A DNA stretch of 64,000 nt from an uncultured Acidobacteriota bacterium (GCA_963793705.1 CAWCBC010000016.1:3908-67907), one strand, 5' to 3'. Positions 32,324-58,276 are shown, numbered from the stretch's first letter. Translations and numbers: made by a program. The notes: generated from the sequence alone by a model not told the origin.

Positions 32324-32384
32324 GCCACGAAGAACACGAAGGTAATTCATTCGTGGTCTTCGATCCTCTTCGTGTCTTCGTGGC
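32324..32384. repeat. intergenic imperfect hairpin with short-period arms (CACGAAGA words)
   Basis: 'gccacgaagaacacgaagg' (32324-32342) pairs with 'cctcttcgtgtcttcgtggc' (32365-32384). Confidence 0.7.
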
Positions 32385-32575
32385 TAACGGTGCTTCGAGG
32401 CCGGTTTTGCGCGGCGGCGGCGCGTGGCGGTGAGCTTCTGCTGCTCACTGCGCCGCTGATCGTTGAGTTGTTTGGTGATCTGCCGGCGCAGGCGCGCGGC
32501 GTCGGTCATCACTTCGTCAAGGCGGGCCAGCAGCTCGGACAATCGTTCGGGTGTGAGGAGATCGTCGTCGGGCAT
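32384..32575 (-). CDS. possible small basic coiled-coil protein
   Basis: 63-aa ORF (MPDDDLLTPERLSELLARLDEV...). No homology recognised, and the coding call is weak. Confidence 0.3.
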   Translation of the reverse strand: MPDDDLLTPERLSELLARLDEVMTDAARLRRQITKQLNDQRRSEQQKLTATRRRRAKPASKHR

Positions 32576-32622
32576 TCCGGCGGGAAACGATAACCGGACT
32601 TCACGACGCCGTAAAGCTCAGC

Positions 32623-33290
32623 CTACCGCGCTGGGATGTGAAACTTCGAGCGACGGTCCGCGAGCAGCCACGAGGCCAGCAGATCGGTCTCAGACGCCCC
32701 GGCATGCGTGTGCTGTGCGCAAATCCTGTCGAGATGCTGCGCGGTGCGCGCATCACCAAAATGCGCAGACGAATACCCACAGAGCAGACGAAATGAGCAT
32801 TCCGTCGACAGATTGTTCCACAGCGTTTCGAGGCGCTCAGCGGCGATGAAGTTGCCTTGCCCGGCCAGGATGTCAACCATTTCGCCGTACGCGGTTACCC
32901 CCGCAGACGATTCGCGACACAGCCGATGGACGAGCGCGCCGACCTGTTCATCGAACTTCTTCCGGTCGGGTTCGCCGTTGACCAGGAAACTGGCGAGCGT
33001 CGTCGGCGCGTCAAGGACAATCAACCGACCAGCAGCGGTGATCTCTTCAACGGGACAACCCTTCGCGGTCAGCTCGGCCGCCGTCGGTGTCCAGTTGGCC
33101 GCGCGTGCGATGACCACCAGCGTATCGCCGCGGCGCCATCCTTCCGGAGAAAGCTGGCCACGGTATCAACGAGCGATCCGGATTCGTCGAAGAGATGAAC
33201 GAGGTGCTCGCTGGCAACGCTGCCTCGCATCACGCGCTCGCGGTGTGGCGACATGTGCTTGAGCCTACGATGGAGCGAATGAGGTAGCAA
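32623..33290 (-). CDS. MEDS domain-containing protein, frame correction near 33120
   Basis: 'EHLVHLFDESGSLVDTVASFL' (ORF 33069..33290) continues in ORF 32623..33117 ('GVTAYGEMVDIL...LLCGY'). Second MEDS gene in the window. Confidence 0.55.
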
Positions 33291-33555
33291 TCACAATCAG
33301 CCGAATTGCCGGGCTTCGCTGGACGTCAGGCGCCATCGCGATCGGGTCGATGCGACCCATCCGTAGCGGGAAAGCGGGGCTCGCGCCGCCGATCGGGCCA
33401 GAACTTGTCTTTCATCGCTCGCTCGGCGTCGCCTCGCACGCGCTCACTTTCACTGCGCGCGCGGTCGACCTGCTCGATGAGGTCCCGAATCTGCTCCGAC
33501 CATGACCGCTCCCGTGAAGCCATCGCAACGGCATTGATCAGCAAACCGTGCGCCG

Positions 33556-34845: not shown

Positions 34846-34854
34846 GGGAATCGT

Positions 34855-34968
34855 CGAACGTTCGGTCGTGGGTCCGGGCGTTCGAATCGTTGAGGACGTT
34901 CGACCAGCCGTTCGGCGGGGTGTTACGAATCACTCGAACGGTTCGAACGGCTCGAACGGTCCGAACGA
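34855..34968. repeat. CGTTCG/CGAACG motif array: four CGTTCG words followed by four tandem 9-bp (N)TCGAACGG units
   Basis: CGTTCG at 34859, 34879, 34897 and 34909. CGAACG at 34935, 34944, 34953 and 34962 (9-bp spacing). The array lies 22 nt upstream of the ankyrin gene ATG. Confidence 0.85.
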
Positions 34969-34989
34969 TTCCAGGTGTAAGATCGGCCC

Positions 34990-36657
34990 ATGAAAACGGG
35001 CCTGCTTCCCGATCGGCGGGGGTCGCCGTCGGTGTCGCTCGCGATGCTGCTGTCAGTGCTTCAGGCGGCAACGGACAGCGCCCTCGTCACAGCCGCCAAA
35101 GACGGCGATCTGGGCGCGGTTCGTGCGCTGATCGCCAAGCGCGTCAACGTCAACGAGCCGGCGCGAGACGGATCCACCGCGCTGCTCTGGGCCGTCTACC
35201 ACTCGGACGTAGCCGATGACCAAGGCGCTGCTGGCCGCCGGCGCCAAGGTCGACACGCCCAACAAGTACGGCGTCACGCCGCTGATTCAGGCGAGCCGCA
35301 CCGGCGACACGCCGCTGATCGACCTGCTGCTGAAGGCCGGCGCCAAGGTCTCGCTGGCGCACCCGGACGGCGAGACGGCGCTGATGGCCGCATCGCGGAC
35401 GGGCCGCGCCGACGCCGTGCGGCTGCTGATCGAGGCGGGCGGCGACGTCAACGCCACCACCTACCAGCAGGAAACGGCGCTGATGTGGGCCGCCGCCGAA
35501 GGGCACACCGCCGTCGTCAAGGCGCTGCTCGACGCGAAAGCCGACGCGAACCGCAAGGCGCGGGTCACCACGATCGACGAGCGGAAGCACGCGGACCATC
35601 CGACCGGCGGCTTCACCGCGCTGATGTACGCGGTGCGCAACGGCCACGAGGCCGTGGCCCGGACGCTCGCGGCCGGCGGCGCCGATCTGAACTCGATCAA
35701 CGGCGACGGCGTCACCGCGCTGATCGTCGCCATCGTCAACGACCGGTTCGACCTGGCAGGCACGCTGGTGGACCTCGGCGCCGACGCGAACGACGGATCG
35801 CTCTACTTCGCCGTGGACATGCACGACGCGACCACCGGACATGCGGGCGCGCGACGGGTCGCGGCTGCGCGCCGACCACCCGAACACGATGACGCGCGCT
35901 CGACCTGATCGCCAAGCTGCTCGATCGCGGCGCCGATCCCAACAAGGCGTTCACCGGCCAGCTGCACTCGTCGACGCTCTGCTGCAGCGACGAAATCAAT
36001 GCCTCGCCGTTCTACCGCGCGGCGGTCGCCGCCGACGTCGAAGCGCTGAAGCTGATGATCGCGCACGGCGCCGACGTCGAGTGGAGCCCGACGCCGGTGA
36101 AGAAGACGGGCGCCGACGAAGACCAGGGCGGCGGACGCGGCAACGCGAACGTCGGACGCACGCCGGTGATGGTGGCGATCAACGGCGGCCGCGGCGCGGC
36201 GTTCGCGGCCGGCCCCGGGTTCGAGCGGCTCGGGCCGCCGCCGTTCCGCGAAGCGTCGAATCGCGAGCCGGTCGATGCGGTCAGGCGTGCTGCTCGCCGC
36301 CGGAGCCAATCCGAACGTCAAGACGCCGGACGGCTCGACGCCGCTGCATCAGGCGGTGACGGCGCGGCAGGTGCCGATCGTCCGCGCGCTCGTGGCTGCG
36401 GGCGCCAAGCTCGACGCCGTCAACAAGGACAACCTGACGCCGCTGCTGCTCGCCGAGAAGCCGGAGCCGCCACCGCCGCCGGGCAACAACACCGACTCGC
36501 GCGTGTTCGGCCGAAGCGCAACACGCGCGAAGAAGTGATCGCGGCGCTGCGCGAGCTGATGGGACTCGGCCCGAACGACCCGGCGCCGGTGCCGCCGCCC
36601 GTCGCGAAAGACGAAAAGAAGGACGGCGAGAAAAAGGCCGGAGACGAACACGCAGTG
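34990..36657 (+). CDS. ankyrin repeat protein (exported), several frame corrections; 3' end approximate
   Basis: Repeated 'G.TALM.A...GH..VV..LL.AGADVN' units across ORFs 34990.., 35216.., 35841.., 36055.. and 36275... Confidence 0.8.
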
Positions 36658-39176
36658 AAGAAGCGTCCTGTCCGCGCGCGGCCCTCGTCTGGGTCGCCGG
36701 CGCGCTACTCGCTCGCGCAGTCGTCACCGTCTCCAGCGAAGCCGTCGGCCGCTGCGCCGTCGGCCGTAGCGGCAGCCGACCGTCAAGGCGGTGCCGCTCC
36801 AGCGCAGCCGACTGCCGCCACGCACCGCGCCTGGCTGAACAGGTACTGCGTCGGCTGCCACAGCAACCGCAGCCCGCAGCCGGCCAACGATCCGGTCAAC
36901 CTCGAATCGGCCAGCCTCGACGATCTGCTGCCGCACGCCGCCACGTGGGAGCGCGTCCTCCGGAAGCTGAGCGTCCGCGCGATGCCGCCGCAGGGAACGC
37001 CGCACCCGACCGAGCCCGAATACGTCGGCGTTCACGACCTGGCTCTCGAGCTCGCTCGATCGCGCCTGGGCCGGGCGAAGCACTCCCGGGCGCTACGTCG
37101 TCCACCGGCTGAACCGCGTCGAGTATCGCAACGCGATTCGCGATCTGCTGGCGCTCGACGTGGACGTCACCGTCGCTGCTGCCGAACGACGGCGGCGACT
37201 TCGGCTTCGACAACATCGCCACGGCGCTGCGCACGTCGCCGCTGCTGCTCGACGGCTATCTCACCGCCGCGCAGCGGATCAGCACGCTGGCGGTCGGCGA
37301 CGCGGAGGCGCACGCCGGGCACGGCCGAGTATTCGATCAACCGCGACTTCAGCCAGAACGCGCACGTCGACGGGCTGCCGCTCGGCACGCGCGGCGGCCG
37401 CGTGGTGCGCCACGTGTTCCCCGCCGACGGCGAGTACAAGCTGTTCGGCCGGCTGGTGCGCGGCATCGAGGAGGGCTACGCCGGCGTCGAGGGCAACGAC
37501 CTGCCGCACACCTTCGTGATCACCGTCGACGGCGCCGAAGTGCACTCGGCGGAGATCGGCGGGCCTGGAGGATCACAAGGCGCAGGCCAAGGACATGAAC
37601 GAGGCGCGCGCCGATCCTCGACGCGCGGATGACGGCGCGGGTCACGGTGACCGCGGGCCCGCACGACATCGGCTTCACGTTCAAGGAGCGGCCGGGCCAG
37701 CCGCAGGACGTCTGGCAGCCGGCGGCGCGCGACAGCCAGGAGATCCACTTCATCGGCGGGCTGCCGAAGCTGAAGACCGTCGGCGTCGAAGGCCCGTACA
37801 ACGTGACCGGCATCAGCTCGACGCCGAGCCGCGAGCGGGTGTTCGTCTGCAAGCCGGCAGCGAGCGCGACCGCCGCGGCGCAGAGCCGCGCTGTGCGACA
37901 GCGGGTCCTGTCGAACCTCGCGAAGCGCGCCTACCGGCGTCCGGTCACCGCCGAGGACCTCGAAGCGCCGCTGGCGTTCTACACCGACGCGCGCGGCGCG
38001 GCGGCGGCAGCTTCGACGCCGGCATCCGCGCCGGCGTCGCGCGCATCCTCGCCAGCCCCAATTTCATCTACCGGATCGAGCGCGACCGCGCCGGGCGTGA
38101 AGCGCGGGCGGCGCGCATCCGGTCAGCGACGTCGAGCTCGCGTCGCGGCTGTCGTTCTTCCTGTGGAGCAGCATCCCGGACGCGCGCCTGCTCGATCTGG
38201 CGATCGCCGGCCAGCTCCGCCAGCCCGGCGTGCTCGCCGCCGAAGTGCGGCGCATGATTGCCGACAAGCGCGCCGACGCGCTGGTCAGCAACTTCGTCGG
38301 TCAGTGGCTGCAGCTGCGGAACCTGGAGTCGAAGGTCCGCCCGGACATCCTCGCTGTTCCCCGACTTCGACGACAACGTCCGCGAGGCGTTCCGCCGCGA
38401 GACCGAGCTGCTCTTCTCCCACATCCTCCGCGAGAACCGCAGCGCGCTGGAGCTGCTGAGCGCCGACTACACGTTCGTCAACGAGCGGCTGGCGCGGCAC
38501 TACGGCATTCCCGGCGTCTACGGCTCGCGCTTCCGCAAGGTGGCGGTGACCGACCCGAACCGCCGCGGCCTGCTCGGCCACGGCAGCATCCTGTCGATGA
38601 CGTCGGTCGCCACGCGGACGTCGCCGGTCTTCCGCGGCAAGTTCGTCCTGACGACGTTCCTCAACACGCCGCCGCCGCCGCCGCTGCCGAACGTGCCGAC
38701 GCTCGAGGAGAGCACGAAGGGCGCGGCGACGAAGCCGAAGACCGTTCGCGAGCAGCTCGAGCTGCACCGCAACAGCCCGGCGTGCGCCGGCTGCCACCGC
38801 GTCATCGACCCGCTGGGGTTCGCGCTCGAGAACTTCGACCCCGTCGGGCAGTGGCGGACGACGGACGCAGACGGCGCGCGCGCTCGACACGGGCGGCGTG
38901 CTGGCGGACGGCTCGAAGGTGGACGGGCCGGTGGCGCTGCGGAACGCCATCCTGAGCCGCCCCGAGGCGTTTGCCACGACCCTGACCGAGCGACTCATGA
39001 CCTACGCGCTCGGCCGCGGCGTCGAGCCGTCGGATATGGCCGTAATCCGCCGGATCGTCAAAAATTCGGCGCAGCGGCTACGCGTTGCAGTCGATCATCA
39101 CGGGATCGTCGACAGCGCGCCGTTCCAGATGCGGACTGGCGCTGGAATCGGCGACACCGAGTCCATCGCGACATGA
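36654..39176 (+). CDS. DUF1592/DUF1588/DUF1585-family haem-binding protein, many frame corrections; start approximate
   Basis: 'YCVGCHS', 'VHRLNRVEYRNAIRDLL' (after frame correction), 'FVGQWLQLRNL', 'SPACAGCHRVIDPLGFALENFD' and 'LMTYALGRG' are spread over ORFs 36055.., 37629.., 38258.. and 38898... Confidence 0.8.
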
Positions 39177-39209
39177 CGCACGCCGGCTGGCAGCCTGGAC
39201 AAAGCAGCC

Positions 39210-40542
39210 ATGATCATCACGAAGAAGCATCTGTCCCGCCGCACCTTCCTCCGCGGCGCATTCGGCGCCACGGTGGCGCTGCCCTGGCTCGACGCCATGA
39301 TGCCGGCGCTCGTCGCGCAGTCGCGCGCGCAGCGCGCCGTTCCGCTTCGGCGTCATCTACATGCCGTGCGGCGTCTATCCGGACACGTGGCATCCGGAGC
39401 AGACGGGCAAGGACTTCGTGTTCAAGCCGGTCATGCAGCCGATCGAGGCGTTCCGCGATCAGCTGGTGACGGTCAGCAAGATGAAGGCGCCGTGGGGCGA
39501 GTCGGTCCACGTCGGCGCCAGCTCGGCGTTCCTGAACGGCATCGGCCCGGTGGTGGCGCGCGAATCGACCGGCGACTCGTTCAACTATCTGCAGTCGAAG
39601 AAGACCCTCGACCAGTACATCGCCGACACGGTGGCCGGCGATACGCCGCTGCACTCGATCGAGGTCGGCACCGAGGACATGGGCACCGCCGCCGGCGCGT
39701 GCGACGGTTTCCCGTGCGTGCTGTTCGAAACGCTCGCCTGGCGTGAAGACACCCGGCCGCTGCCGGTGTCGATCAACCCGCGCGTGACGTTCGAGCGCAT
39801 GTTCGGCGAGACGGGCTCGGCGCAGCAGCGCGCCGCGCGGCTCAAGGAGAAGCAGAGCCTGCTCGACTCGGTCACGCAGGAGACGTCGAAGCTGCGCCGG
39901 ACGCTCGGCGCGCCCGACCGCGCCATCCTCGACGAGTATCTGAGCAACATCCGCGAGGTCGAGCAGCAGCTCGATCGCATGGAAACGCGCCTCAGCACGC
40001 TGACCGGCAACCCCGAGTCGCCGATCGGCCTGCCGGAGGCGTTCGACGATCACATGAGCGTGACCTACAACCTGATGCACCTGGCGCTGCAGGGCGACAT
40101 CAGCCGCGTGTTCACGTTCATGATCGGCCACGAGCCGACCGACCGCAGCTACGCGCACATCGGCTGCCCCGAGACGCACCACAGCATCTCGCACCACGGC
40201 AACGACGCCGAGAAGCTGGCCAAGTACGCCAAGATCGGCACCTATCAGATGGTGAAGTTCGCCGAGTTCCTCGAGAAGATGCGGGCGACGAAGGACGGCG
40301 ACGGCAACCTGCTCGATCACTCGCTGCTCTACTGGGGCAGCGGCATGAGCAACGGCAACGCCCACGACCGCAGCAACCCGCCGGCGCTGCTCGTCGGCGG
40401 CGCGCACGGCCGGCTGCAGGGCAACCGCCACCTCGTCGCCGGCAAGGACGAGCCGACCGCGAACCTGCTGCTCGCCATCGCCCACCTCGCCGGCGTCGAG
40501 ATCGAGAGCATGGGCCCGAGCACGGGGCGCTTCAATCTGTAG
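39210..40542 (+). CDS. DUF1552 domain-containing protein (Tat signal), frame correction near 39340
   Basis: 'LSRRTFLRGAFGATVALPWLDAM', then the 393-aa ORF 39361..40542 ('THHSISHHGND...LLYWGSGMSNGNAHD'). Confidence 0.85.
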
Positions 40543-40554
40543 CCACGAAGGGTA

Positions 40555-40579
40555 CGTAGTGTCCGCCTTCAGGCGGACC
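40555..40579 (+). repeat. REP-like hairpin, type A (CGTAGT-GTCCGCC-TTCA-GGCGGAC-C)
   Basis: Identical 25-mer to 61508..61532. Confidence 0.85.
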
Positions 40580-40594
40580 GCCGCGAAGATAATA

Positions 40595-40625
40595 GGGCCG
40601 CCGAACAGGCGGCCCTTTTTCTTTA
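40595..40625 (+). terminator. Rho-independent terminator after the DUF1552 gene
   Basis: GGGCCGCC-gaaca-GGCGGCCC followed by TTTTTCTTT. Confidence 0.75.
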
Positions 40626-40848
40626 TCAGTGCGCTTCCTCGTTCGCTGATTCGTGTAAACGACGTCGGCCACCGCTGTGTGCGCAGCAGCACGGCTCAGT
40701 TTGCGATCACAAGCGATCCGCGTACCGGTATTACACGGCTGGCGTAGGCAGCCGGTGGTCTGCTGAAGAACACCGGAGCGCGCCAGTCGGAGCGCACTTG
40801 CACGGCGCACGCCCATCCAGCGGGACCTGATGACATCCGGAGGGCGAA

Positions 40849-41519
40849 GTGACATCCATTTCCCGTCTTCTGTCGTTCACGTTTTCCGTCGCCGCCGCAA
40901 TCGCCTGCCTTGACTGCGGATCCACCGCGTTGTCACCGACGTCGCCCTTCGCGGGCGGCGCGTCCAGCGGAGCGGTGATTTCGGGTCGCGTGACCGGCGC
41001 TCCGATTCGGAGCACGGCCTCGAGCACGACTGCGGGTCCGATGGCGACAACGAAAATCACCGTCGCCATAGTTGGGACAGACATCTCGACCGCAGTTGAT
41101 GGCAACGGGCAATTCACGCTGACGGGCGTACCTCCGGGGGATGTGCAACTGAAATTCTCGGGGGCAGGTGTCGAGGGCACGATCACGCTGACCGGCGTGT
41201 CGGCTACCGATCGCATCTCCATCGTCGTCTCATTCAGTGGCAACGGCCCTCGTCTGGATAAAGGGATCGGGACGACGACGATGACGACAACGATGACGAG
41301 AACGACGACGACAACGAGCTGGATGGCACGGTGTCCGGTCTGACCGGCACCTGTCCCAGCCTGACGTTCACCGTCCAACAGACCACGATTAAGACGAACG
41401 GCTCCACGGAGTTCAAGGACGGCTCGTGCGCGAGCGTCGCCAACGGCAAGCGTGTCGAGGTCGAGGGAACCCGCCAGGCCGACGGGACAATCATGGCAAC
41501 CGAAGTCGAACTCGATTAG
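40849..41519 (+). CDS. lipoprotein with carboxypeptidase-regulatory-like and DUF5666-like domains, frame correction near 41265
   Basis: GTG at 40849 after GGAGGG. 'IACLDC' lipobox-like, 'VDGNGQFTLTGVPPGDVQLKF', a poly-Asp/Asn linker visible in the alternative frame, and the tail 'TFTVQQTTIKTN...VEVEG...ATEVELD'. Confidence 0.6.
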
Positions 41520-41556
41520 CGCGGAGCCCGCGCTCCGCTCAACGGGAAGGGATAAT

Positions 41557-41587
41557 AAGGCGGCCTCAAAGGGCCGCCTTTCTCTTG
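41557..41587 (+). terminator. Rho-independent terminator
   Basis: AAGGCGGCC-tcaaag-GGCCGCCTT followed by TCTCTTG. Confidence 0.65.
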
Positions 41588-42739
41588 CCTAACCACTGGA
41601 AGCTCACGCAGCGCCTCGCCTTCCGCTTCGGCGTCGTCTATCTCGCGCTGTTCTGCCTCGCCACGCAGATCTCCGGCAGCCTGATTCCCAACCTCTGGTT
41701 CACGTATCGCGGGCTCGGCCGGCTGTGGCCGATGCGCGAGATCACGCACTGGGTCGCGGGGACCGCCTTCGGCGTCACCGTGCCGCTGGACGACGTCAGC
41801 AGCGGCGAGACGCTGTTCTTCTGGATCCAGACGGCGTGGGTGCTCGTGGCATCCGTTGCGGCCACAGCGGTCTGGTCGCTCCTCGACCGCCAACGCCGCA
41901 GCTTCTCCGCGTGGTTGCCGTGGGTACGCCTGGCCGTCCGCCTCGTCCTGGCGGCGTCGCTGCTCGAGTACGGGATGACCAAGGTGATCCCGACACAGTT
42001 TCCCGCGCCGCCGCTCACCGCGCTGGTCACGCCGGTCGGCGACATGACGCTGAGCGCGCTGCTGTGGACGACGATCGGATCGGCGCCGGCGTATCAGATC
42101 GCCACCGGGTGCGTCGAGGTGCTGGCCGGCGTGCTGCTGCTCCTGCCGCGGACCGTGCCGCTCGGCGCGCTGCTCGCGCTGGTGTCGCTGCTGCAGGTAC
42201 TGCTGCTGAACCTGACCTTCGACATCGGCGTGAAGCTGGTGACGATGCATCTGATCGCGCTGGCGGTGATTCTGCGTGGCGCCGGTGGTGCAGGTCGCTG
42301 GCGGCCGTTGTGGCTCCGCCTCAAGGCGGACCCTACGTCGGAGGTCCGGTTAAAAGCGGACACTACGAGTACGGTCGCTCTCGTCCTGCCGATCGTGTTC
42401 GGTGCGTATCTGCTCGGAACGCAGGCGTATATCAACTGGAGCTTCTGGCAGGTCGGCGGCGGCGGACGGCCGAAGTCCGTGCTCTACGGGATCTGGAACG
42501 TCGAGCGGCTGTCGGTTGACGGGCAGGTTCGAGCGGCGGAGTTGAATGACTACGACCGCCGCTGGCGACGCGTGATCTTCGATGAGCCCGAGGCCGTCGT
42601 CGTCCAGCGCACAGATGACTCGTTCGCGCGCTACGGCGTTTCAATCGATCGCAGCAGCGGAACGCTCGCGCTCACGAAAGGTGGCGGCCGGACGTGGTCG
42701 TCGCGCTTCACCTTCGACCGCGCGTCCGACGATCGATGA
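41585..42739 (+). CDS. polytopic membrane protein (DoxX-like N-terminal half) with soluble C-terminal domain; start uncertain (TTG 41585 proposed)
   Basis: Within ORF 41426..42739: 'RLAFRFGVVYLALF...' and at least 5 hydrophobic helices. It contains an in-frame REP-like doublet. Confidence 0.55.
   Translation: MPNHWKLTQRLAFRFGVVYLALFCLATQISGSLIPNLWFTYRGLGRLWPMREITHWVAGTAFGVTVPLDDVSSGETLFFWIQTAWVLVASVAATAVWSLLDRQRRSFSAWLPWVRLAVRLVLAASLLEYGMTKVIPTQFPAPPLTALVTPVGDMTLSALLWTTIGSAPAYQIATGCVEVLAGVLLLLPRTVPLGALLALVSLLQVLLLNLTFDIGVKLVTMHLIALAVILRGAGGAGRWRPLWLRLKADPTSEVRLKADTTSTVALVLPIVFGAYLLGTQAYINWSFWQVGGGGRPKSVLYGIWNVERLSVDGQVRAAELNDYDRRWRRVIFDEPEAVVVQRTDDSFARYGVSIDRSSGTLALTKGGGRTWSSRFTFDRASDDR
42314..42367 (-). 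repeat. two degenerate REP-like hairpins embedded in frame in a CDS
   Basis: 'ctccgcctcaaggcggaccctacg' and 'gtccggttaaaagcggacactacg' translate as 'LRLKADPTSEVRLKADTTS'. Each stem has one mismatch. Confidence 0.75.
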
Positions 42740-42860
42740 GTGCTGGCGGGCGAGATGGACGGCCACAGGATTGATGCCGATCTGCGGCTGCATCGATCCG
42801 TCAGCGTTTCCGCTGCTGAACAGCGGCTTCCGCTGGATTCGTCCGCATGATCCGTAAACC

Positions 42861-43174
42861 GGGAGTTAACGGAGGTTACGGAGGTAACGGTCTCACAGGA
42901 GCAACGGAGATAACGAAGGCGAACGGAGGCTGGTTGATTCGCGGGTGAGCCGGCCTCCGGCCGGCTCTCATCGATCGAGTAAAGGGACGATCACAAGCCG
43001 ATTCTCGATGACCGCATGGGCTTGTGAATCGTCCCTTGCTCGATCGATTCGGGCGCGAAGCGCCCTCACCGCGAATCAACCAGCTTCAAAACGGCACGGA
43101 TCACCCAGGCCTTCTCCGTTCGTCCTCCGATTTCTCCGTTCCTCCTGTAAAACCGTTGCCTCCGTCCTCTCCGG
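42861..43174. repeat. ~314-bp nested inverted-repeat element: 9-bp-periodic arms (AACGGAG / CTCCGTT words) enclosing three hairpins
   Basis: The left arm 42861-42949 pairs with the right arm 43065-43174 (core 'ctggttgattcgcgggtgag' / 'ctcaccgcgaatcaaccag'). Inner hairpins lie at 42947-42967, at 42971-42999 paired with 43019-43047, and at 43051-43065. Confidence 0.8.
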
Positions 43175-43186
43175 ACTTCGCGCCCG

Positions 43187-44003
43187 TCAGTTTCGCGTGC
43201 GGTCGGCGCGCGCCCGCTCGAACTCGTCGCGCAAGCCGCGATCCGTGCGGTACCACGGCACACGCAGCCCCGCGACATTGGCGAGCATCCGTGACGGCGC
43301 GAACGCCATGCGGGCAACCCGCGTCAACGTCGTATTGCCGCGACGTTCGATGCGCCGCACGAGGTGCTCTTCGAGTGCGTCCTCGGCCAGCATCCAGCCA
43401 AATCCGACCGTGGGCGTGATGACGAGATCAACAACCCCCTCCTTCTGCGGCGACAGCCCGAGCATCGCCTCGCTCAAGGGACCAATTTCCCACTGAGTGC
43501 TGTAGGCCGCACTGAAGGCCAACGCCCGGAAGCGGCTCGGCCCAGTAACCGTCGTCTCCGGGCCGCACGACGCGGCCTCGGGCGTCGTTGTTGAGGAGCA
43601 GGCGGCCCGACATCGCGCCCATCAAGGGGTGGGCCACGTAGTTGACGAACGGGGGGCCTTGGTCGTCCCAGTGGTCAAGCGCCTTCACGTTTTCCTGCCA
43701 GTTGCGAAACATCGATATCTGCGTCAGGCGTTGGCGCGACTGCGGCTCGCCCATCAGCCGAAACGTCTGCTGCCACGAGGTCGCGTGCAGACTCTGCAGG
43801 AGCAGCGGTTTCCAGTCGATGCGGTGTGGTTCCTTCGCGGCCGCCGGCGGCCTGGATGCGGTAGGAGTGGTGTCGATGGTGCCGACCTGGCCTGTAGCGG
43901 CTTCCAGCCGGAAACGCTCCACGGTCGAGGATTGATCGTCGCTCGCGAACGATGGGGCACTCACAACGAACACAAGTGAGACAGCTAACGCAAGGGCTCG
44001 CAT
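43187..44003 (-). CDS. secreted hypothetical protein, frame correction near 43500-43560
   Basis: Signal peptide MRALALAVSLVFVVSAPSFA. The body is read across ORFs 43428..44003 and 43187..43522. Confidence 0.5.
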
Positions 44004-44119
44004 AACCAGTCCTGGGCTGACGCCGGTTGAGGTGTTACCGCAGAGAGGGAGAAGTAATTCTAACAGGCGAAACCACGGATGCCTCGCCGGTCGCGGCGCT
44101 AACGTCCGCGCCGACCGTT

Positions 44120-44515
44120 TTACCGTTTCCGGTACGTGGCTGTCGTAGAGACCGTCCGGCCCTTCGAGTCCTGTTCCCTCGTATCGACGTTCAGTGTCCC
44201 ACCGTCTGCCGATACGACTGCTGTCGCGACCGCGGCGGCCCGTCCATCGACCTTGACGACGATCTCGTAGCTGAGATCGGACAGTCTTCTATAGGCGTTC
44301 GTCAGGACGTAATCGACTCCCTGAACCGGATAGTCGTTGCCGTCGAAGCGCCCGGTCCATTCGATGTGAGTGACGCCGCCGCGGCGCCGCACCATGTCGT
44401 AGACGACGCGCAGGCCGTCGTCCCACGGCTCGATGCGCAGCGTGACCTTCTGATACGGCCACGGGTCGAACCACCTCTTTTCTGGAGGAACTTGCTGCCA
44501 GGTGCCGAACCAGGG
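44120..44515 (-). CDS. hypothetical protein, apparently 5'-truncated (no start codon upstream of the internal ATG at 44395)
   Basis: The frame is open from 44515 ('QAPWFGTWQQVPPEKRWFDPWPYQKVTLRIEPWDDGLRVVYDM...'). It is bounded upstream by a stop and two REP-like hairpins. Confidence 0.4.
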   Translation of the reverse strand, partial: PWFGTWQQVPPEKRWFDPWPYQKVTLRIEPWDDGLRVVYDMVRRRGGVTHIEWTGRFDGNDYPVQGVDYVLTNAYRRLSDLSYEIVVKVDGRAAAVATAVVSADGGTLNVDTREQDSKGRTVSTTATYRKR

Positions 44516-50638: not shown

Positions 50639-53600
50639 TCAGCGCGCTTCGTACGCAACTCGCCCGTTGACGATCGTCATCACCGAGCGGGTGTCTTTGA
50701 TCTGATCGACAGGCACCGTCAGGTAGTCGCGATCGAGGACGACGAGGTCCGCGAGCTTGCCGACTTCGATCGATCCCGAGATTCTTCTCCTGGAACACCA
50801 GATAGGCGTTCGCCGCGTGTGGGCGATGAGCGCCTCTTCACGACTGATCGTGTGTGTCTGGCTGAGCACAACCCGGCCGCCGACCATCCGGCCGGTCACT
50901 GCCCACGACAGCGTCTGAAACGGAAGAATCTGATTCGCGCGGCTGCCGTCGCTGCCGAGTCCCCACACGACGCCGCTGGCCTGCAGCGTCTTGAGCGGCG
51001 CCATATCCATCGCAGCACGCTCGAAAACCGTGCGGTTGATGCCGCCGTTGATCACCGCCCACGGATGGACGGCAGCAGCCATCCCGAGCTTCTTCATGCG
51101 TTCGAGGTCGGCGGCGCTGATCTGGTTGACGTGCGCCAGCATCCAGCGCAGGTTCCGGATCGGATACTCGCGATCGATCAGCTCGATCTGATCGAGAAAG
51201 GCGCCGATCGTGGCCGTCAGGTTGGCGTGCACGTGCAGCGGCAGGCCAGCCTTCGCCACCTCGGTGGCGACGCGCCGCCACTCGGCGAGCTGGTCGCGGC
51301 TGCGGACTGGAGGCGCGCACGAACATCGGATCGTGCAGCGGCGAGTAGACGGTCTCGCCATAGGCAATCTGATTGATGAAGGTGTCGCCCTGCTGCACTT
51401 TCATCGCGCGGATCTGCGGCAGGATGCCGCTGACCTGCTGCGGCGTGCCCGCCGAAAAGCCGGTGATGCAGAACACCCGGACGTTGAGCTCCTTTTTCTC
51501 GGCCCATCGCCTGTAGATCGGCAGCACGTTTGGCTCGCACGCCGCGCTGCCGAAGGCCGTGAGCCCCGCGCGGTTGAGGTCCTGGATCATCTGCCGCGTG
51601 CTGGATTCGAGCTCCGCGCCAGTTGCCACGGGCAGCCGCGCCGCCACTCCGCGCAGGCTTGATTCCTGGACGACACCGGACGGGTCTTCGAGGCCAAGCG
51701 CTTTCATCGCCAGCGTGTTCGCGTAGCCGCGGTAGTAGGACGCCTGCAGGAAGACCGGATTCGCCGGCGCGACACGATCGAGTTCCGCAGGCGTGAACGG
51801 ACGCTCATCGTCCGCGAACTGCTCGAGCGTCCAGCCGCCGAGGGTGTAGATCCACTCGCCCGCCTGGATCGCTTTCGCGCGCTCACGAATCAGATCGAGC
51901 GCCTGCTTGCGCGACGGCACGCCGTCCAACCGCACCTCGCGCTGCCACGTCGTGCCCGCGCGCAGCAGGTGCATGTGGTTGTCGATCAGCCCGGGGACGA
52001 CGGTCTTTCCTGCCAGGTCAACGCGGCGCGTCGTGCGACCGGCAAGCGCCTGAATCTCCTTGTCGGTTCCAACCGCGATGATTCGACCGTCGCCGATGGC
52101 CACAGCCTGCGCGATGGAGAACCGCTCGTCGACGGTCACGACCTTGCCGTTGGTGAGAATCAGATCCGGCATGCGCAGCTGCGCGGCCCCCGCGGCGCCC
52201 GCGCCAGCAATCGCGAAGGCGTACACGGCGCCGGCTTCATCCGCGGCATTGTTGGACTGGTCGCCGTTGACGCCGCGCGCCGCGCTGTTTGCTTGGCGCG
52301 CAGACGCGCTGTCTTCACCTTTCGCCGACGCCACGAGCGTCGTACCCGTGCGATCGAGCGCCACCGAGCTGCCGAACTCGTCAAAGGCGTCGGTGTTGGA
52401 CCCTTTTACGTACGCGCGCTGCTGCCACGTCGTTCCCGCTCGAGTGAACACATAGACGGCCCCGGCCTGGCTCGCGGACTCGTCATCCTGCCGCCCATTG
52501 ATGCCTTTGGCACCGCCATCCTCGAACGGCGCGGCAATCGCCGCGGTGTTACCGTCGCCGCTCAGCGCGACCCGCGCGCCGAACCAGTCGTTCGGGCCGG
52601 TGTTCGACGGCTTCAGGAACGCCTGTTGCGCCCACGTGCCGCCGGCACGCACGAAGACGTAGGCGGCGCCCATCGACAGATCGTCGTTCCAGTCGTTGTC
52701 GCATCCACGTGGGTTGACGCCGGTCGCCGGGCAGTCCTCGTCCAGCGATCCCGCCAGCAGCGTGGCGCCGTCGTCGCTGAGCGCAATGTGGACGCCGAAG
52801 GAATCCTGCGACTCGCTGTTGGACGGTTTGATGTACGCCTGCTGAGACCAGTTCGAACCCACGCGCGCAAACACATAGGCCGCTCCCGATCCGGCATTGC
52901 GATTGTCGGACGGAGGATTGATGCCGCGGCCGGAGCCGTCCTCGTCGAAGCTGCTGACCGCGAGCGTGTAGCCGTCGCGGCTCAGCGCCACCGAGTACCC
53001 GAACATGTCACCGGCATCCGGGTTCGACGGCTTGACGTAGGCCTGCTGCACCCAGGTGTTCCCGGCTCGCGTGAAGACATAGACGGCGCCGGCTCCCTGC
53101 GCCGAGTTGTTGCGCTGGTCTGCCGTTGATACCCGCGGACCCGCTGTCTTCGGTAATCGCTCCAACCGCGATGGTGTTGCCATCGCCGCTCAGCGCGAGC
53201 GACCAGCCGAACTGATCGCCCTCGCCAAAGCTGTCCGCGGTCCCGGCCTCGCCGGTGTTGGACGCCTTGACGTAGGCCTGCTGCATCCACGTCGAGCCTG
53301 CGCGCGCGAACACGTACACGGCTCCAGCCTGCGGAATCGATTCATCGCGCTGGTTTCCGTTGATGCCGGTGGCGTTGCTGGCTTCCCAGTACGCCGATAC
53401 GGCCAGCGTGTTGCCGTCGGCGCTCAGCGCGACGTAGTGGCCGAACTCGGCGCCGGTCTGCGGGTTCGATGGCTTGAGGTAGGCCTGCTGCGTCCAGCGC
53501 GTCGCCGGTGCGCGTGAAGACGTAGACCGCGCCCGCGTCGAAGAGCGAGTTATCCGCCTGATTGCCGTTGATGCCACGGGCAGCGCTGGATTCGTGCGGC

Positions 53601-55240: not shown

Positions 55241-55377
55241 CGTGATGAATCTTAGCCCCAAGGCCGAACCTCGAAGGTCGAGCCACTACCACTGATTCTT
55301 CTTCTTCGACCCTCTTTCCTGGATCAGCCCTTGGGCGTTGGGCCTGGGCCTTGAGGCCTGTACACTTCGCTCTCGTC

Positions 55378-55849
55378 ATGGCTAACTTCACCTTAAGGGT
55401 CAACGGGAAGACTTCATACCGTCGACGTCGACCCCGCCACCCCTCTGCTCTACGTCCTGCGCAACGACCTCGACCTGCACGGCCCGCGCTTCGGCTGCGG
55501 TCTCGGCCAGTGCGGCGCCTGCACGGTGCTGATCAAAGGCGAAGCCGTCCGCTCGTGCATGCGGCCGATCTCAGGAGTCGCTGGGGCCGAGATCACGACG
55601 CTCGAAGGACTCGCGACCAACGGCCGGCTGCATCCGCTGCAGCAGGCGTGGATCGACGAGCAGGTGCCGCAGTGCGGGTTCTGCCAGAACGGTCAGATCC
55701 TCACGGCGAAGGCGCTGCTCGATCGGACCCCCAATCCGAGCGACGCGCAAATCCGCCAGGGGATGAACTCGACGTTGTGCCGCTGCATGACGTACTACCG
55801 GATCCAGGCGGCCATCAAACGCGCGGCAAAGGCGATGGTGAGCGCATGA
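55378..55849 (+). CDS. (2Fe-2S)-binding small subunit of an IorA/aldehyde-oxidoreductase-type enzyme, one inserted base near 55420
   Basis: 'MANFTLRVNGK...' then 'GCGLGQCGACTV' (after frame correction) and 'QCGFCQNGQI...LCRCMTY' in ORF 55526..55849. Confidence 0.85.
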
Positions 55850-58164
55850 CCACCAGACGCGATTTCATCAAGTCGTCCGGCTACCTGGTCGTCGGGATCA
55901 CGGCGATCGCGAATGCGGATCCGTTCACGGGCCTCGTCGTCGAGGCGCAGGGCGCCGGTCCGTATCCGGACCTGGACTTCCGGCAGCTCGATTCGTGGAT
56001 CGTCATCCGCGAGGACAACACCGCAACGTTCTTCGTCGGCAAAACCGATCTCGGTCAGGGCACCGGCACCGCGTTCCGGCAGATCATGGCCGACGAGCTC
56101 GACATGCCCTACGCACGAACGAGCTGCGTGATGGGAAGCACCGACGTCACCGTCGATCAGGGTGGGTCCGGCGGATCGGATGCGCTGCAGACCGACGGCT
56201 GGCCGATGCGCCGCGTCGCGGCCGAAGCGCGCCGGGTTCTCCTCGAACAGGCGAGCGCGCGCTTCAGCGTGCCGGTCGCCCAGCTTGCCGTTGCCGATGG
56301 CGTCATCTCGGTCGCTGCCGATCCGACGCGGCGGGTCACCTACGGCGAACTGATCGGCGGCCGCAAGTTCAACGTCACGCTGCGCGGGAACAACACCGAC
56401 GCGACGACAGGGACAGCGCCGATCAAGACCGTCCAGCAGCTCAAGATCGTCGGGCAGTCGCCGCAGCGCTATGACATTCCGCCTAAGGTCGATGGCTCGC
56501 TGAAGTGGGCCGTTGACATGAAGGTGCCGGGGATGCTGCACGCGCGGAACGTGAGGCCGCCGGTTGCCGGCGCCACGCTCGTGAGCATCGACGAGTCGTC
56601 AGTGAAGGGCGTGCCCGGACTCGTCAAAGTGGTGAGCAAAGGGAACTACGTCGCGGTCGTGTGCGAGCGCGAGGAGCAGGCGATTCAGGCGGCGCGTCAG
56701 CTCAAGGTGAATTGGAGAAACCCGGCAACGCCGCCGTTTCCTGCGTCCGAAGATCTCTTCCGCTACATGCGCCAGGCGACGCCGACCTCCAGCGGAAATC
56801 CGGCCGTCGTCGGTAATCCTGACGCCGCATTCAGCAGCGCCGCTCGGGTCGTGGAAGCCGACTACGACATTCCGTTCCAGGGACACGTCTCGATCGGCCC
56901 GGCCCACGCGATGGCCGATCCGTCGAACGACCAGTTGACGATCTACTCCAACGACATGAAGTCGTACGGGTTGCGCAACGGCGTCGCGGAGTTCCTCAAG
57001 ATGCCGCGCGATCGCGTGCGCGTCGTGTGGATGGAAGGACCGCAGGCGTACGGGCGAACGGCCGCGGACGATGCCGGCTTCGAGGCGGCGTTTCTGGCGA
57101 AGGAGCTGGGACGGCCGGTGCGAGTGCAGTGGATGCGGCAGGAAGAGACCGCATGGGATACGAAGGGGCCGGCATTCACCGTCAAGATGCGCGGCGGACT
57201 CGATGCGCAGGGCAATCTCGTCGCGCTCGACTTCGAGGCGCGTGCGGCCGACCACAACCATCTGGGTTACAACGAATTCGACACCGTGCTGATTTCGCAG
57301 CTCGCCAACATGCGGCGCGCAACGCCCGCGCGCGGCGGCGCGGCCACACCGTCGGAGATGTACGCCATCCCCAACCGGCGGACGGTCGCGCACGTCGTCG
57401 GCCTGCCGCTGATCTGGGAGACGCCGCTCCGCACCGGCAACCTGCGCGACCCCAATGGTCCGCAGGTCACCTTCGCGTCCGAGTCGTTCATCGACGAGCT
57501 CGCGGTGGCGGCCAAGGCGGATCCGGTGGAGTTCCGTCTGCGGCTGCTCAACGCCGGCACCGGGGACGACAGCGGGTTCAAGCGTGCGCGATCGATCGCG
57601 TGCGTCAAAGCGGCGGCCGAGAAATACGGCTGGCAGCCGCGGCCGTCGCCACAGGCGCGCGCGACCGGCGACATCCTGACCGGCCGTGGAATCGCTTACA
57701 CCTACCGCAGCCAGACCGTGGTGGCGCAGATCGCCGAAGTCGAAGTGAACCGCCGGACCGGCCGCGTCTGGGTGAAGCGCATCGTCTGCGCGCACGACTG
57801 CGGCCTCGTCATCAATCCGCAGGGGCTGATCCGGACGATCGAAGGCGGGACGCTGTATGCGCTCAGCCGGGCGCTGCACGAAGAGGTGACGTTCGACACC
57901 GAGAAGGTCACCAGCGTGGACTGGGCGACCTATCCGACGCTGACGCACGCCGACACGCCGGAGTCGATCGACGTCGTGCTCGTCAACGGCGACCCGAATC
58001 CGAACCGGCCCGACCTGCCGCACTACGGCGCCGGGGAAACCGTCTGCAAGCCGCTGATGGCGGCAGTGGCAAATGCGATCTACGACGCGACCGGCGTGCG
58101 CATGCGCCGCCTGCCGTTTCGGAATGCACGCGTCCTGGCCGCACTGAAGGCCGCGGGCGCCTAG
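55846..58164 (+). CDS. molybdopterin-binding large subunit, xanthine dehydrogenase/IorB family (Tat signal)
   Basis: The ATG at 55846 overlaps the small-subunit stop (ATGA). 'MTTRRDFIKSSG', 772 aa, intact. Confidence 0.9.
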   Translation: MTTRRDFIKSSGYLVVGITAIANADPFTGLVVEAQGAGPYPDLDFRQLDSWIVIREDNTATFFVGKTDLGQGTGTAFRQIMADELDMPYARTSCVMGSTDVTVDQGGSGGSDALQTDGWPMRRVAAEARRVLLEQASARFSVPVAQLAVADGVISVAADPTRRVTYGELIGGRKFNVTLRGNNTDATTGTAPIKTVQQLKIVGQSPQRYDIPPKVDGSLKWAVDMKVPGMLHARNVRPPVAGATLVSIDESSVKGVPGLVKVVSKGNYVAVVCEREEQAIQAARQLKVNWRNPATPPFPASEDLFRYMRQATPTSSGNPAVVGNPDAAFSSAARVVEADYDIPFQGHVSIGPAHAMADPSNDQLTIYSNDMKSYGLRNGVAEFLKMPRDRVRVVWMEGPQAYGRTAADDAGFEAAFLAKELGRPVRVQWMRQEETAWDTKGPAFTVKMRGGLDAQGNLVALDFEARAADHNHLGYNEFDTVLISQLANMRRATPARGGAATPSEMYAIPNRRTVAHVVGLPLIWETPLRTGNLRDPNGPQVTFASESFIDELAVAAKADPVEFRLRLLNAGTGDDSGFKRARSIACVKAAAEKYGWQPRPSPQARATGDILTGRGIAYTYRSQTVVAQIAEVEVNRRTGRVWVKRIVCAHDCGLVINPQGLIRTIEGGTLYALSRALHEEVTFDTEKVTSVDWATYPTLTHADTPESIDVVLVNGDPNPNRPDLPHYGAGETVCKPLMAAVANAIYDATGVRMRRLPFRNARVLAALKAAGA

Positions 58165-58276
58165 TTGGTTAGTTAGCTAGTTGGATAGTTCGTAGTGAAG
58201 AACGCGGAGGAACGAAGAACCTGAAGAACAACTACGAACTCACTCTACTTCCAACTATCCTGCAACTATCCAACTG
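58162..58276. repeat. imperfect inverted repeat with 8-bp-periodic arms (TAGTTGGN words) around a GAAGAAC-rich centre
   Basis: Left arm 'tagttggttagttagctagttggatagttcgtagtg'. Right arm 'caactacgaactcactctacttccaactatcctgcaactatccaactg'. Confidence 0.75.

Follow-up and report, generated by a model that had tools for sequence, protein, structure and literature searches.

Intergenic hairpins with tandem-word arms in a soil Acidobacteria lineage as probable mobile elements without genes, remodeled by replication slippage

Foldback (FB) transposons of Drosophila carry long terminal inverted repeats made of short tandem subrepeats; these eukaryotic, kilobase-sized elements vary in arm length between copies, and many copies contain no gene. 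Bacterial MITEs (e.g., Correia, Nezha, and RUP) are non-autonomous intergenic elements of 50-400 bp with terminal inverted repeats, and are present in some strains and absent from others. REP, REPIN, and BIME elements are small, non-autonomous, multi-copy intergenic palindromes that abut stop codons without duplicating their target, and REP stems are unique 20-40-bp palindromes tagged GTAG or CGTC. Heterocystous cyanobacteria contain heptamer repeats known as STRR. Two reports (PMC3116915, PMC3733652) deal with REP, REPIN, and BIME elements and the associated RAYT transposases, and long simple sequence repeats with units of 5-11 nt and an excess of heptamers are described in the summary of Mrazek et al. 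2007 given in PMC4679880. Xanthomonas and Nostoc carry intergenic arrays of a GGGNATC heptamer (Rehm et al. 2015, PMC4692102), which often lie within 50 bp of a stop codon and vary in unit number. Each Xanthomonas genome contains 70-75 convergent (inverted) pairs, and many of the arrays occur in inverted pairs that could fold into stem-loops. Related species usually retain the array type but differ in array length, and the single G-rich heptamer that dominates a genome has been interpreted through G-quadruplexes (PMC4692102). These heptamer arrays and the REP elements are the closest published relatives of the elements described here.

The DNA analyzed, hereafter the window, is a 64-kb stretch from an uncultured Acidobacteriota bacterium. 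The original prediction held that four intergenic hairpins in it share one design, in which arms of 8-9-bp tandem units are inverted around a non-repetitive center, but share no sequence. The four loci are present at the coordinates claimed. They have the appearance of mobile elements without genes, altered by replication slippage, and not of structural signals under conservation. The reading that we favor, by a modest degree of confidence, is that each locus is a copy, often remodeled or half-decayed, of a different non-autonomous, foldback-like palindromic family, gene-less and subject to slippage and arm-to-arm copying. The features are as follows, with the strand given where one was assigned.

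22640-22745, no strand: additional hairpin of CTTCGC / GCGAAG words, 106 nt, directly 3' of tRNA-Asn
26762-26800, no strand: one-armed ACTTC/GAAGTG array, in the spacer that separates the SRP RNA from the dnaX start
32323-32385, no strand: locus 1, CACGAAG-family hairpin, flanked by a conserved small ORF (stop side) and the asd start
34846-34975, no strand: locus 2, CGAACGG-family element, in the gap that separates a cytochrome-c gene stop (34845) from an ankyrin gene start (34990)
42858-43176, no strand: locus 3, nested AACGGAGG-family palindrome, from a DoxX-like gene to a convergent DUF3943-like gene
42862-42930, + strand: locus 3 left arm, about seven 9-nt units of the AACGGAGGT type
42926-43087, no strand: locus 3 inner modules, a 19-bp stem with enclosed hairpins
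43105-43173, + strand: locus 3 right arm, CCTCCGT-type units, bulged
44600-44670, + strand: locus 5, unpaired TGAACC array with two REP-like hairpins ahead of it (about 44530-44590)
58161-58276, no strand: locus 4, TAGTTGG-family hairpin, in the gap that separates a molybdopterin-enzyme gene stop from an ABC ATPase start (58292)

Reiterated 8-9-nt words are found as predicted, although the description of the loci needs some correction. Locus 1, which lies between a small ORF (32384-32575, - strand) and the asd start (32302, - strand), is asymmetric, with two CACGAAGA units on the + strand opposite four CTTCGTG-type units, enclosed by a perfect 11-nt outer stem (32323-32333 / 32375-32385). At locus 2, only the right arm forms a genuine 9-nt tandem array (TCGAACGGN x4.2), whereas the CGTTCG words of the left arm are irregular and spaced by 12-20 nt; the right arm of locus 4 is degenerate, with 11-nt spacing. 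Locus 3 begins directly behind the DoxX-like stop TAA (42855-42857) and ends 10 nt short of the stop of the DUF3943-like gene (43187), with arms that are 80% complementary (42870-42919 / 43124-43173). The centers of two loci also need redescribing: that of locus 3 is not plain sequence but a near-perfect 19-bp stem (42926-42944 / 43069-43087, 95% complementary) enclosing three hairpins (42947-42967, 42970-43048, and 43051-43065), and that of locus 4 has GAAGAAC words of its own. No second copy of the locus 3 inner modules was found, either in the window or among compared loci totaling about 1.3 Mb.

Each locus was folded as RNA and compared with 200 dinucleotide shuffles. All four hairpin loci are far more stable than their shuffled controls (z -3.3 to -18): locus 1 (32316-32392) reaches -31.8 kcal/mol with z -4.3 on the + strand and -5.1 on the - strand, locus 2 (34846-34975) -62.4 kcal/mol (z -3.4), locus 3 (42855-43180) -208.6 kcal/mol (z -18), and locus 4 (58155-58285) -39.7 kcal/mol (z -3.3). 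Locus 5, noted originally as a periodic arm lacking an inverted partner, is just that, and no hairpin was obtained on folding 44600-44700 (z +0.85). The window was also scanned for 6-mers occurring at least three times in 45 nt with their reverse complement clustered within 350 nt. Nine such loci were found, against 2.0 +/- 1.4 (maximum 6) in 200 third-order Markov simulations; they include all four hairpin loci and the additional hairpin at 22640-22745 (-68.3 kcal/mol), to which the relatives' sequence after tRNA-Asn is unrelated. Compared with the intact genes of relatives, the window is frameshifted roughly once every few hundred bases, a pattern resembling indel errors of long reads, and the distinction between unit lengths of 8 and 9 is accordingly soft. 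It is nevertheless scarcely credible that the loci themselves are artefacts of error-prone long-read assembly, since relatives show the same architecture, partly with the same sequences, on independent contigs from metagenomes and MAGs, and every locus is flanked on both sides by sequence collinear with theirs.

The stability of these folds could instead suggest selected cis-acting hairpins, serving as bidirectional terminators, mRNA 3'-end stabilizers, RNase III sites, or protein-binding arrays, with the sequence drifting under a conserved fold. Consistent with this explanation, every locus begins only a few nucleotides from a stop codon (at locus 4 the molybdopterin-enzyme stop TAG, 58162-58164, lies within the first unit), loci 3 and 5 are flanked by convergent genes, and similar arms occur on two small metatranscriptome contigs. 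The gap behind the DoxX-like gene has gained hairpins independently in the window (AACGGAGGT), L001 (AATGCAG, with a remnant in L002), L004 (ACACAGAG), and L009 (ACGAATTGA); the same gap holds TGAACC in L102 and nothing in L003, L006, and L008, so that four or five different word hairpins occupy one orthologous gap across relatives. The gap of locus 5 likewise contains a TTGGTCC hairpin in L002, L098, and L099, a CACGAAG hairpin in L001, and REP-like hairpins alone in L101. However, the sites of loci 2 and 3 are cleanly empty in the closest relatives: at locus 2 the 127 nt of 34847-34973 correspond to 10 nt in L101 by BLASTN, an exact presence/absence difference, and about 330 nt at locus 3 correspond to 32-35-nt spacers in L098, L100, and L101. 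The word of locus 1 is retained in relatives whose asd identity is 87-95%, but as direct-only arrays, inverted-only arrays, or both, so that one-armed arrays replace the hairpin in several of them. Stems lack T-rich tails; an intrinsic terminator search returned no terminator-like site at loci 1, 2, 3, and 5, and no T run follows locus 4. At gathering score, Rfam recognizes only SRP RNA, tRNA, and a c-di-AMP riboswitch in the window, and no family at the loci. Moreover, a single lineage contains no fewer than ten different words, and many binding proteins would therefore be needed. A cis-acting role thus appears quite unlikely, and the structural function originally suggested is not borne out: with no U-tract terminators, no Rfam match, and hairpins lost or one-armed in relatives, no function is indicated. 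A cassette with a PF05635 'IVS protein' or nuclease gene in the loop was also considered and rejected, as no loop in the window contains a plausible gene; the sole ORF listed inside locus 3 starts in the center and runs antisense through the neighboring DUF3943-like gene, and a search for array partners out to 2 kb revealed only ordinary genes between arrays.

The suggestion of a common generating mechanism fares better, as slippage in unit number can be observed directly. L095, L096, and L097, which have identical asd proteins and are 98.7% identical over 19.4 kb, contain nine, six, and five left-arm TAGTTSG units, respectively, with the right arm unchanged; this array is one of just two internal indel hot spots, other indels being at the divergent end of L096. 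CGAACG units number 4.2 in the window and five in L092. Arms are mirrored unit for unit in L004, a perfect palindrome with 35-nt arms of non-identical units, and in L015, where two composite copies show compensated changes (CACAGAG/CTCTGTG versus CACGGAG/CTCCGTG). The unit-number differences among near-identical strains also fit growth in place, in which local seeds slip into 7-9-nt arrays, template switching produces the inverted copy, nothing moves, and recurring words reflect mutational or structural preference. Two observations of this kind count against the explanation that we favor. The gap between the SRP RNA and dnaX presents a series of short seed ('CCACTTCCCAACTTATTCC' alone in L095 and L097), array (the window), and full hairpin (105 nt, CAAGTGN/CACTTGN, in L092), and the left arm of locus 2 is also complementary to the unique flank ATTCC, which fits local inverted duplication. 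One-armed arrays at locus 5, in L012, and at the locus-2 site of L092 (shared with L099, where the right array of five units stands with a REP-like hairpin) are compatible with this scenario as well. We nonetheless regard growth in place as unlikely, if the most serious of the competing scenarios. A clean 26-nt insertion in L092, absent from the window, consists of three CACCGAGG units that are not derived from the flanking sequence, and the distribution of words among relatives points to movement.

Within the window each word is found at a single locus and elsewhere only at background frequency, which counts against the favored explanation. The original view that no single element was copied to all of the loci is right. 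Shared sequence appears, however, at non-orthologous sites in relatives, and its absence here is a sampling effect of the 64 kb. CACGAAG elements occur in L001, L005, L015, L024, and L092; TAGTTSG elements occur in L095-97, where the word of locus 4 forms a hairpin at the locus-2 site; and the AACGGAGG arm is present in L101 and L102, about 1.2 kb away from the orthologous position. The 73-nt left arm of locus 3 (42857-42929) consists of dissimilar units and shares 90.4% identity with L101 12362-12433, a match that growth in place would not readily produce at a non-orthologous site. Nor would it readily explain the TGAACC array of L102, a homologue of locus 5 at the locus-3 site, where a 14-nt leader recurs with the array and mean column identity is 80% over the whole 104-column alignment and clearly higher across the array. 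CCAC[AG][AG]AG...CT[CT][CT]GTGG pairs were found at 6 intergenic loci in 1.1 Mb, a count that leaves out two matching pairs inside coding sequence (L051 and L059), judged coincidental; about 1.35 would be expected by chance. Many contigs from soil and sediment metagenomes match the arms of loci 1, 3, and 4, at 5-20 times flank depth and with flanks that differ, and segment 32350-32387 of locus 1 alone matches at least five different contigs of a single metagenome. For locus 4 the excess of 5-20 times is confined to the left arm (58164-58211), with none on the right; at loci 1 and 4 this depth indicates a shared word and not a proven common origin, because same-word arrays match without shared descent. 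At locus 3 the left arm reaches 5-10 times flank depth and depth is raised on the right side at 43116-43216, while the inner modules do not exceed the flanking genes. Metagenome copies of locus 3 have recurrent end points (start 42862/42863, end 43173) despite unrelated flanks, again contrary to growth in place. These results show that the element families are dispersed among genomes of soil Acidobacteria (order Vicinamibacterales) and that their ends are reproducible. The elements occupy short spacers where genes end, as a rule 0-5 nt past a stop codon, and at orthologous sites of close relatives they may be present, missing, or replaced by another. As each word recurs at non-orthologous sites and on diverse contigs, the pattern favors dispersal of several families and is not, as originally argued, evidence against transposition.

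Under the favored reading of dispersed gene-less families, copies would be carried to new sites by a trans-acting enzyme able to recognize hairpins or single-stranded DNA, such as a REP-associated (RAYT-type) Y1/HUH transposase. Once a copy is inserted, replication slippage may alter the number of its units, the arms may stay or again become complementary through fold-back copying or intrastrand template switching, and other palindromes such as REP-like hairpins could nest within the elements. Frequent loss of one arm would leave orphan arrays such as locus 5, and effects on transcript ends or adjacent promoters would be a by-product. Consistent with non-autonomous elements, neither transposase families nor PF05635 are present among the genes tabulated for 11 syntenic loci, which together span about 190 kb, and we know of no insertion sequence that shares these ends and could be the parent. 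Alternatively, the arrays could be stacked target-site duplications, accumulated through insertion and excision cycles of an element that duplicates 7-9 bp. Periods of 7-9 nt are indeed common target-duplication lengths, and REP-like hairpins lie inside CACGAAG arrays with direct units flanking them (window 40543-40590 and L092 9831-9900). Yet L095-97 gained units without any trace of an inserted element, and neither REP elements nor RAYT transposases are, to our knowledge, known to duplicate their target; accumulation of such footprints is very improbable.

Among known systems, bacterial MITEs resemble loci 1-4 in size (63-326 nt here) and in having inverted arms around a short non-coding core (50-500 bp in MITEs), but here each arm is built as a tandem array. 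None of the junctions shows a target-site duplication, which counts against the favored reading, and comparison of filled with empty sites at loci 2 and 3 shows no direct repeat of the flank. In this lack of duplication, and as small non-coding intergenic palindromes next to stops, the window elements are like REP elements, and GTAG-tagged REP-like hairpins co-occur with the arrays and nest inside them (e.g., 40557-40580 and about 44530-44590). They are not themselves REPs or REPINs, since their arms are word arrays and not imperfect palindromes of 20-40 bp tagged GTAG or CGTC. With STRR and long simple sequence repeats they share several unrelated short words per genome, tandem arrangement in non-coding DNA, proposed slippage, and 5-11-nt units varying in number between strains; those repeats are described there mainly as direct arrays, without inverted arm pairs, defined ends, or relocation. 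The Xanthomonas and Nostoc arrays likewise are intergenic short-unit arrays of variable number that form convergent inverted pairs close to stop codons. Unlike them, the elements here comprise at least ten words of 7-9 nt in one lineage, most without G4 potential, their palindromes are nested, and orthologous sites are empty or hold other words while copies lie at non-orthologous sites. A GGGNATC-type G4 heptamer with four G-tracts does not fit the window words CACGAAGA, CGAACGG, AACGGAGG, TAGTTGG, and TGAACC; a GGGATTT word occurs in L015 only. In design, the elements, whose terminal inverted arms are arrays of a 7-9-nt word, resemble foldback elements or MITEs, and the likeness to FB transposons lies in how the elements work, not in family membership. 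We tentatively raise the further possibility, which we do not consider probable at present, that soil Acidobacteria carry an undescribed class of bacterial foldback-type mobile DNA, with many gene-less word-array palindrome families inserted by a trans-acting, structure-reading enzyme behind stop codons and into hairpin arms or apices, and reshaped by slippage and arm-to-arm copying. If this were true, the long-unexplained cyanobacterial STRR and the Xanthomonas heptamer arrays would belong to the same phenomenon, in a poorer form.

The original prediction held that four intergenic loci share one design, in which inverted arms of short tandem units enclose a non-repetitive centre, and that a fifth carries a periodic array without a partner. 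At all five loci the sequence reads as stated. Genes were placed by Pfam matches and relatives' proteins, and every locus is non-coding and begins a few nucleotides from a stop codon.

Repeat loci of the window, their gene context, and RNA folding free energy with z-scores against dinucleotide shuffles
32323-32385: locus 1, CACGAAG words, flanked by asd and a conserved small ORF; -31.8 kcal/mol, z -4.3 (+ strand) and -5.1 (- strand)
34846-34975: locus 2, CGAACGG words, flanked by genes for a cytochrome c and an ankyrin-repeat protein; -62.4 kcal/mol, z -3.4
42858-43176: locus 3, nested palindrome, between convergent DoxX-like and DUF3943-like genes; -208.6 kcal/mol, z -18
44600-44670: locus 5, TGAACC array, in another gap with conserved blocks on both sides; no hairpin, z +0.85
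58161-58276: locus 4, TAGTTGG words, flanked by genes for a molybdopterin enzyme and an ABC ATPase, with a stop codon inside the first unit; -39.7 kcal/mol, z -3.3

The four hairpins are far more stable than their shuffles (z -3.3 to -18), and the partnerless locus 5 does not form a hairpin. Pair statistics cover the window, where G+C is 63-74% (mean about 66%), and about 1.3 Mb of fetched relatives' loci. Within the window, a scan for a clustered 6-mer with its clustered reverse complement in the vicinity returned 9 loci, compared with 2.0 +/- 1.4 in 200 Markov simulations, none of which exceeded 6; all four hairpin loci were recovered, along with an extra hairpin at 22640-22745, next to tRNA-Asn. 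The feature is real and non-random, and the interpretation put on it is corrected in part. The overall architecture holds in all four, but the arms are less regular than described and the centre of locus 3 is not plain sequence: the arms of locus 1 are unequal (two units opposite four), locus 2 has a true 9-nt array in its right arm only, locus 4 has a degenerate right arm, and further palindromes are nested within the centre of locus 3.

Several neighboring genes (asd, ankyrin, PSD-domain protein, HXXSHH, DoxX-like and DUF3943-like) are split between frames (31145-32302, 34990-39200, 39210-40542, 41585-42857 and 43187-44003). Compared with the intact genes of relatives, there is one frameshift in asd, at least five in the ankyrin gene, at least six in the PSD-domain gene, at least one in DUF3943 and one in DoxX, or about one per few hundred bases. 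These look like uncorrected long-read indel errors rather than pseudogenes; hence, the distinction between 8-nt and 9-nt units is soft. Relatives' proteins place the true DoxX-like stop at TAA 42855-42857, immediately ahead of locus 3. The same architecture appears on independent contigs from relatives, so the arrays are almost certainly not an assembly artefact. A conserved TAAGAT / TACACT / TAAACT box lies 6-8 nt ahead of the start codons (ATG) of asd and the ankyrin gene (window 32303-32325 and 34975-34992), and at the corresponding places in five relatives (L012, L014, L092, L095 and L101), which suggests leaderless transcripts and promoters adjoining the arrays. The conserved small ORF upstream of asd (window 32384-32575, - strand) encodes 63 aa, and 82 aa are called in L092 and L101. 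In L092 (9653-9901), its final ~25 codons traverse the CACGAAG array together with a REP-like hairpin nested there, and the repeat has apparently been absorbed into the coding end.

The closest relatives of the window are metagenome-assembled genomes labelled Vicinamibacterales, Acidobacteriota. Eleven genome loci were collected via the DoxX-like protein and 80 metagenome loci via asd, together with additional syntenic contigs (asd identity 90-95%, DoxX-like identity 83-86%); handles beginning with L denote these loci and contigs. Two gaps change occupant from relative to relative, the locus-5 gap showing four distinct states.

Occupants of two orthologous gaps
Gap 3' of the DoxX-like stop codon (site of locus 3):
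Window: AACGGAGGT hairpin, 326 nt
L001: AATGCAG hairpin
L002: remnant of an AATGCAG hairpin
L004: ACACAGAG/ACACAAAG units forming a perfect palindrome, arms 35 nt
L009: ACGAATTGA hairpin
L102: TGAACC array
L003, L006, L008: empty
Locus-5 gap:
Window: TGAACC array and REP-like hairpins
L001: CACGAAG hairpin
L002, L098, L099: TTGGTCC hairpin
L101: REP-like hairpins, no array

In L098, L100 and L101, the closest relatives keeping the DUF3943-like gene, the spacer at the locus-3 site is just 32-35 nt, indicating that locus 3 is an insertion in the lineage of the window. Locus 2 occupies 127 nt (34847-34973) compared with 10 nt in L101; at this site L092/L099 has the right array only (five units) with a REP-like hairpin, and L095-97 have another element. 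The CACGAAG/CTTCGTG words of locus 1 are kept by every relative at 87-95% asd identity except L013, in varied arrangements: L012 has only direct units, L093/94 and L095-97 have only inverted ones, and the window, L014 and L092 have both, L092 with a REP-like hairpin inside one of its arms. Hence, the hairpin itself is not conserved. Unit number does vary between orthologous gaps, but the expectation of a kept hairpin failed at locus 1, with its one-armed versions, and at the empty sites of loci 2 and 3. Among L098, L099 and L100, which have an identical DoxX-like protein, no array differences were seen.

Larger differences were also observed. A 4.4-4.9-kb block encoding a Ser/Thr kinase, an ECF sigma factor, a UCP032817-like protein and others is present in L099 (12190-16626) and L101 (12247-17179) and absent from the window (44045-44153), and the AACGGAGG element lies at its left edge in L101 and L102. 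A 926-nt stretch of the window (40625-41550), missing from L099 and L101, encodes on the + strand a protein that is probably secreted and contains an Asp-rich (GAC)n linker; the stretch is flanked by two GATAATAGGGCCGCC... terminator-like hairpins (40588-40626 and 41550-41590).

These comparisons bear on a structural function, which had been offered as one possibility. Selection for terminator or stabiliser hairpins, or for binding-site arrays, is quite unlikely in view of the empty sites in close relatives, the one-armed versions and the number of different words. The loci have no Rfam match, no T tails were found after the stems, and a promoter and terminator scan of the window gave counts equal to shuffles, with none at the loci. 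Two small contigs from four metatranscriptomes fall on the right arm of locus 3; none of these runs contains the source organism. Telomere-like and G-quadruplex readings were rejected since most words do not fit. A CsrA-type GGA-motif RNA was likewise rejected for locus 3, since its motifs would be sequestered by the complementary arm and are missing from the other loci.

Each word is limited to one locus in the window, which is why the loci had been described as sharing design without sequence. That description is true of the window only, as words recur at non-orthologous gene ends of relatives. For example, the CACGAAG family occurs in the L001 locus-5 gap, L005 (3' of the DoxX-like gene, with a similar loop), L024, L015 (two copies) and a second site in L092, and the TAGTTSG word of locus 4 forms a hairpin at the locus-2 site of L095-97. 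CCAC[AG][AG]AG...CT[CT][CT]GTGG pairs were found at six intergenic loci in 1.1 Mb, compared with about 1.35 expected by chance; two further matches inside coding sequence (L051 and L059) were judged coincidences. The left arm of locus 3, with unlike units in a particular order, has 90.4% identity over 73 nt with L101 (12362-12433) and a copy in L102, both about 1.2 kb off the window's position, beyond the DUF3943-like gene. The locus-5 array, with about 14 nt ahead of its first unit, has a homologue in the L102 locus-3 gap. An earlier BLAST of the locus-3 inner modules and all arms against the fetched loci passed only the orthologous locus-2 array of L092; the L101 and L102 copies emerged from comparison with the closer relatives.

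When soil and sediment metagenome contigs were mapped on the window, the locus-3 arms reached 5-10x the depth of flanking genes, and the centre did not exceed them. Contigs matching these arms have dissimilar flanks and repeated end points (42862/42863 and 43173), with a stop codon adjoining the end in two cases. The locus-1 right arm and locus-4 left arm give the same pattern. Raised depth at the short arrays demonstrates a common word and no more; at locus 3, true homology is established by the copies found in relatives. Local slippage with inverted duplication as the sole process leaves the relocated 73-nt arm unexplained and is unlikely.

A common generating mechanism, as suggested, can be seen at work, and slippage is directly visible. 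L095, L096 and L097 have the same asd protein and 98.7% identity over 19.4 kb, yet their left arms hold 9, 6 and 5 TAGTTSG units, respectively, with identical right arms. This array and the dnaX coding repeat are the only internal indel hot spots of the alignment, the other indels being at the divergent end of L096. These unit gains leave no trace of an inserted element and no direct evidence was found for stacked target-site duplications, making them a highly improbable source. The locus-1 spacer is partly replaced in strains ~99% identical to the window in asd. Arms are also mirrored: in L004 they are exactly complementary despite differing units inside each arm, and two composite elements of L015, 0.8 kb apart, share a plan (AAATCCC array, ATCACGAG, CCACRGAG array, loop, mirror image) and differ by compensated changes (CACAGAG/CTCTGTG versus CACGGAG/CTCCGTG). 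Nesting involves REP-like hairpins within arrays (L092 locus 1; window 40543-40590) and inner word-arms within outer ones (L015; window locus 3). The SRP RNA-dnaX gap holds CCACTTCCCAACTTATTCC in L095/L097, an expanded ACTTC array in the window and a 105-nt same-word hairpin in L092, and growth in place seems to have occurred. Nearby, dnaX itself has a GGTGCGA-type coding tandem repeat (window 25396-25544; L095 16779-16830).

Other repeats and calls were noted in the window. REP-like hairpins whose loops are of the TGAAG/CTTCA type, e.g., GGCCGACCTTCAGGTCGGCC, some with GTAG ahead (22950-22975, 27010-27040, 40557-40580, 44530-44590 and 62725-62750), belong to a distinct repeat family, whose members occur in the same gaps as arrays and also nested within arrays. 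A heptamer array (TTTTGCAT/TTTTGAAT, 45483-45511) lies at a gene start, and its position and word are kept in L002 (4573-4602). A c-di-AMP riboswitch match at the Rfam gathering score (3453-3686, - strand) spans three tandem 32-nt units (3543-3636), each a GGAACGCC/GGCGTTCC hairpin. A 92-nt ARAGORN tRNA-Gly (52520-52611, anticodon ACC) within a long ORF is not confirmed by Rfam and is probably a false call.

On balance, we lean towards the loci being small palindromic elements, non-autonomous and of several families, with word arrays as their inverted ends. This reading draws on the defined ends of the elements, the homologous copies located at gene ends that are not orthologous, their exact presence or absence at orthologous sites and the changing occupants of one gap. 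It also draws on the failure to find a transposase or cargo gene close to the elements, in gaps between arrays or in syntenic gene tables; only ordinary genes (a periplasmic binding protein and leuD) lie between separate hairpins, and no link to PF05635 gene cassettes was observed. Such elements would be moved by a putative mobilising enzyme and subsequently remodelled by slippage, arm-to-arm copying, nesting and loss of an arm. No target-site duplication was found at element junctions; this absence would be consistent with a Y1/HUH-type mechanism acting on single strands or specific to hairpins.

Vicinamibacterales abound in soil, and these elements are among the quickest-changing parts of their genomes: between strains 98.7% identical, one of them is among just two internal indel hot spots found over 19 kb. 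The elements adjoin stop codons and promoter-like boxes. They can themselves provide a stop codon and, it appears, can become part of the coding sequence at a gene's C-terminal end. They touch the old open question of why 7-9-nt tandem repeats accumulate in bacterial non-coding DNA, and filled, empty and relocated sites among sequenced relatives make the origin of such repeats testable. In practice, they make useful strain markers and are a cause of metagenome assembly breaks.

No description of such elements in Acidobacteria was found in the literature searched. The nearest published description concerns Xanthomonas and Nostoc, where GGGNATC heptamers form arrays; each Xanthomonas genome has 70-75 inverted pairs of such arrays (PMC4692102). 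Next nearest is the broader class of long simple repeats with 5-11-nt units and an excess of heptamers, as summarised in PMC4679880, followed by the STRR repeats of cyanobacteria and by REP/REPIN elements. The present elements differ from these known repeats in four respects: many 7-9-nt words coexist, palindromes are nested, orthologous sites show complete turnover, and there is evidence that copies have relocated. In the way they work, they most resemble the foldback elements of eukaryotes, whose inverted ends consist of tandem subrepeats.
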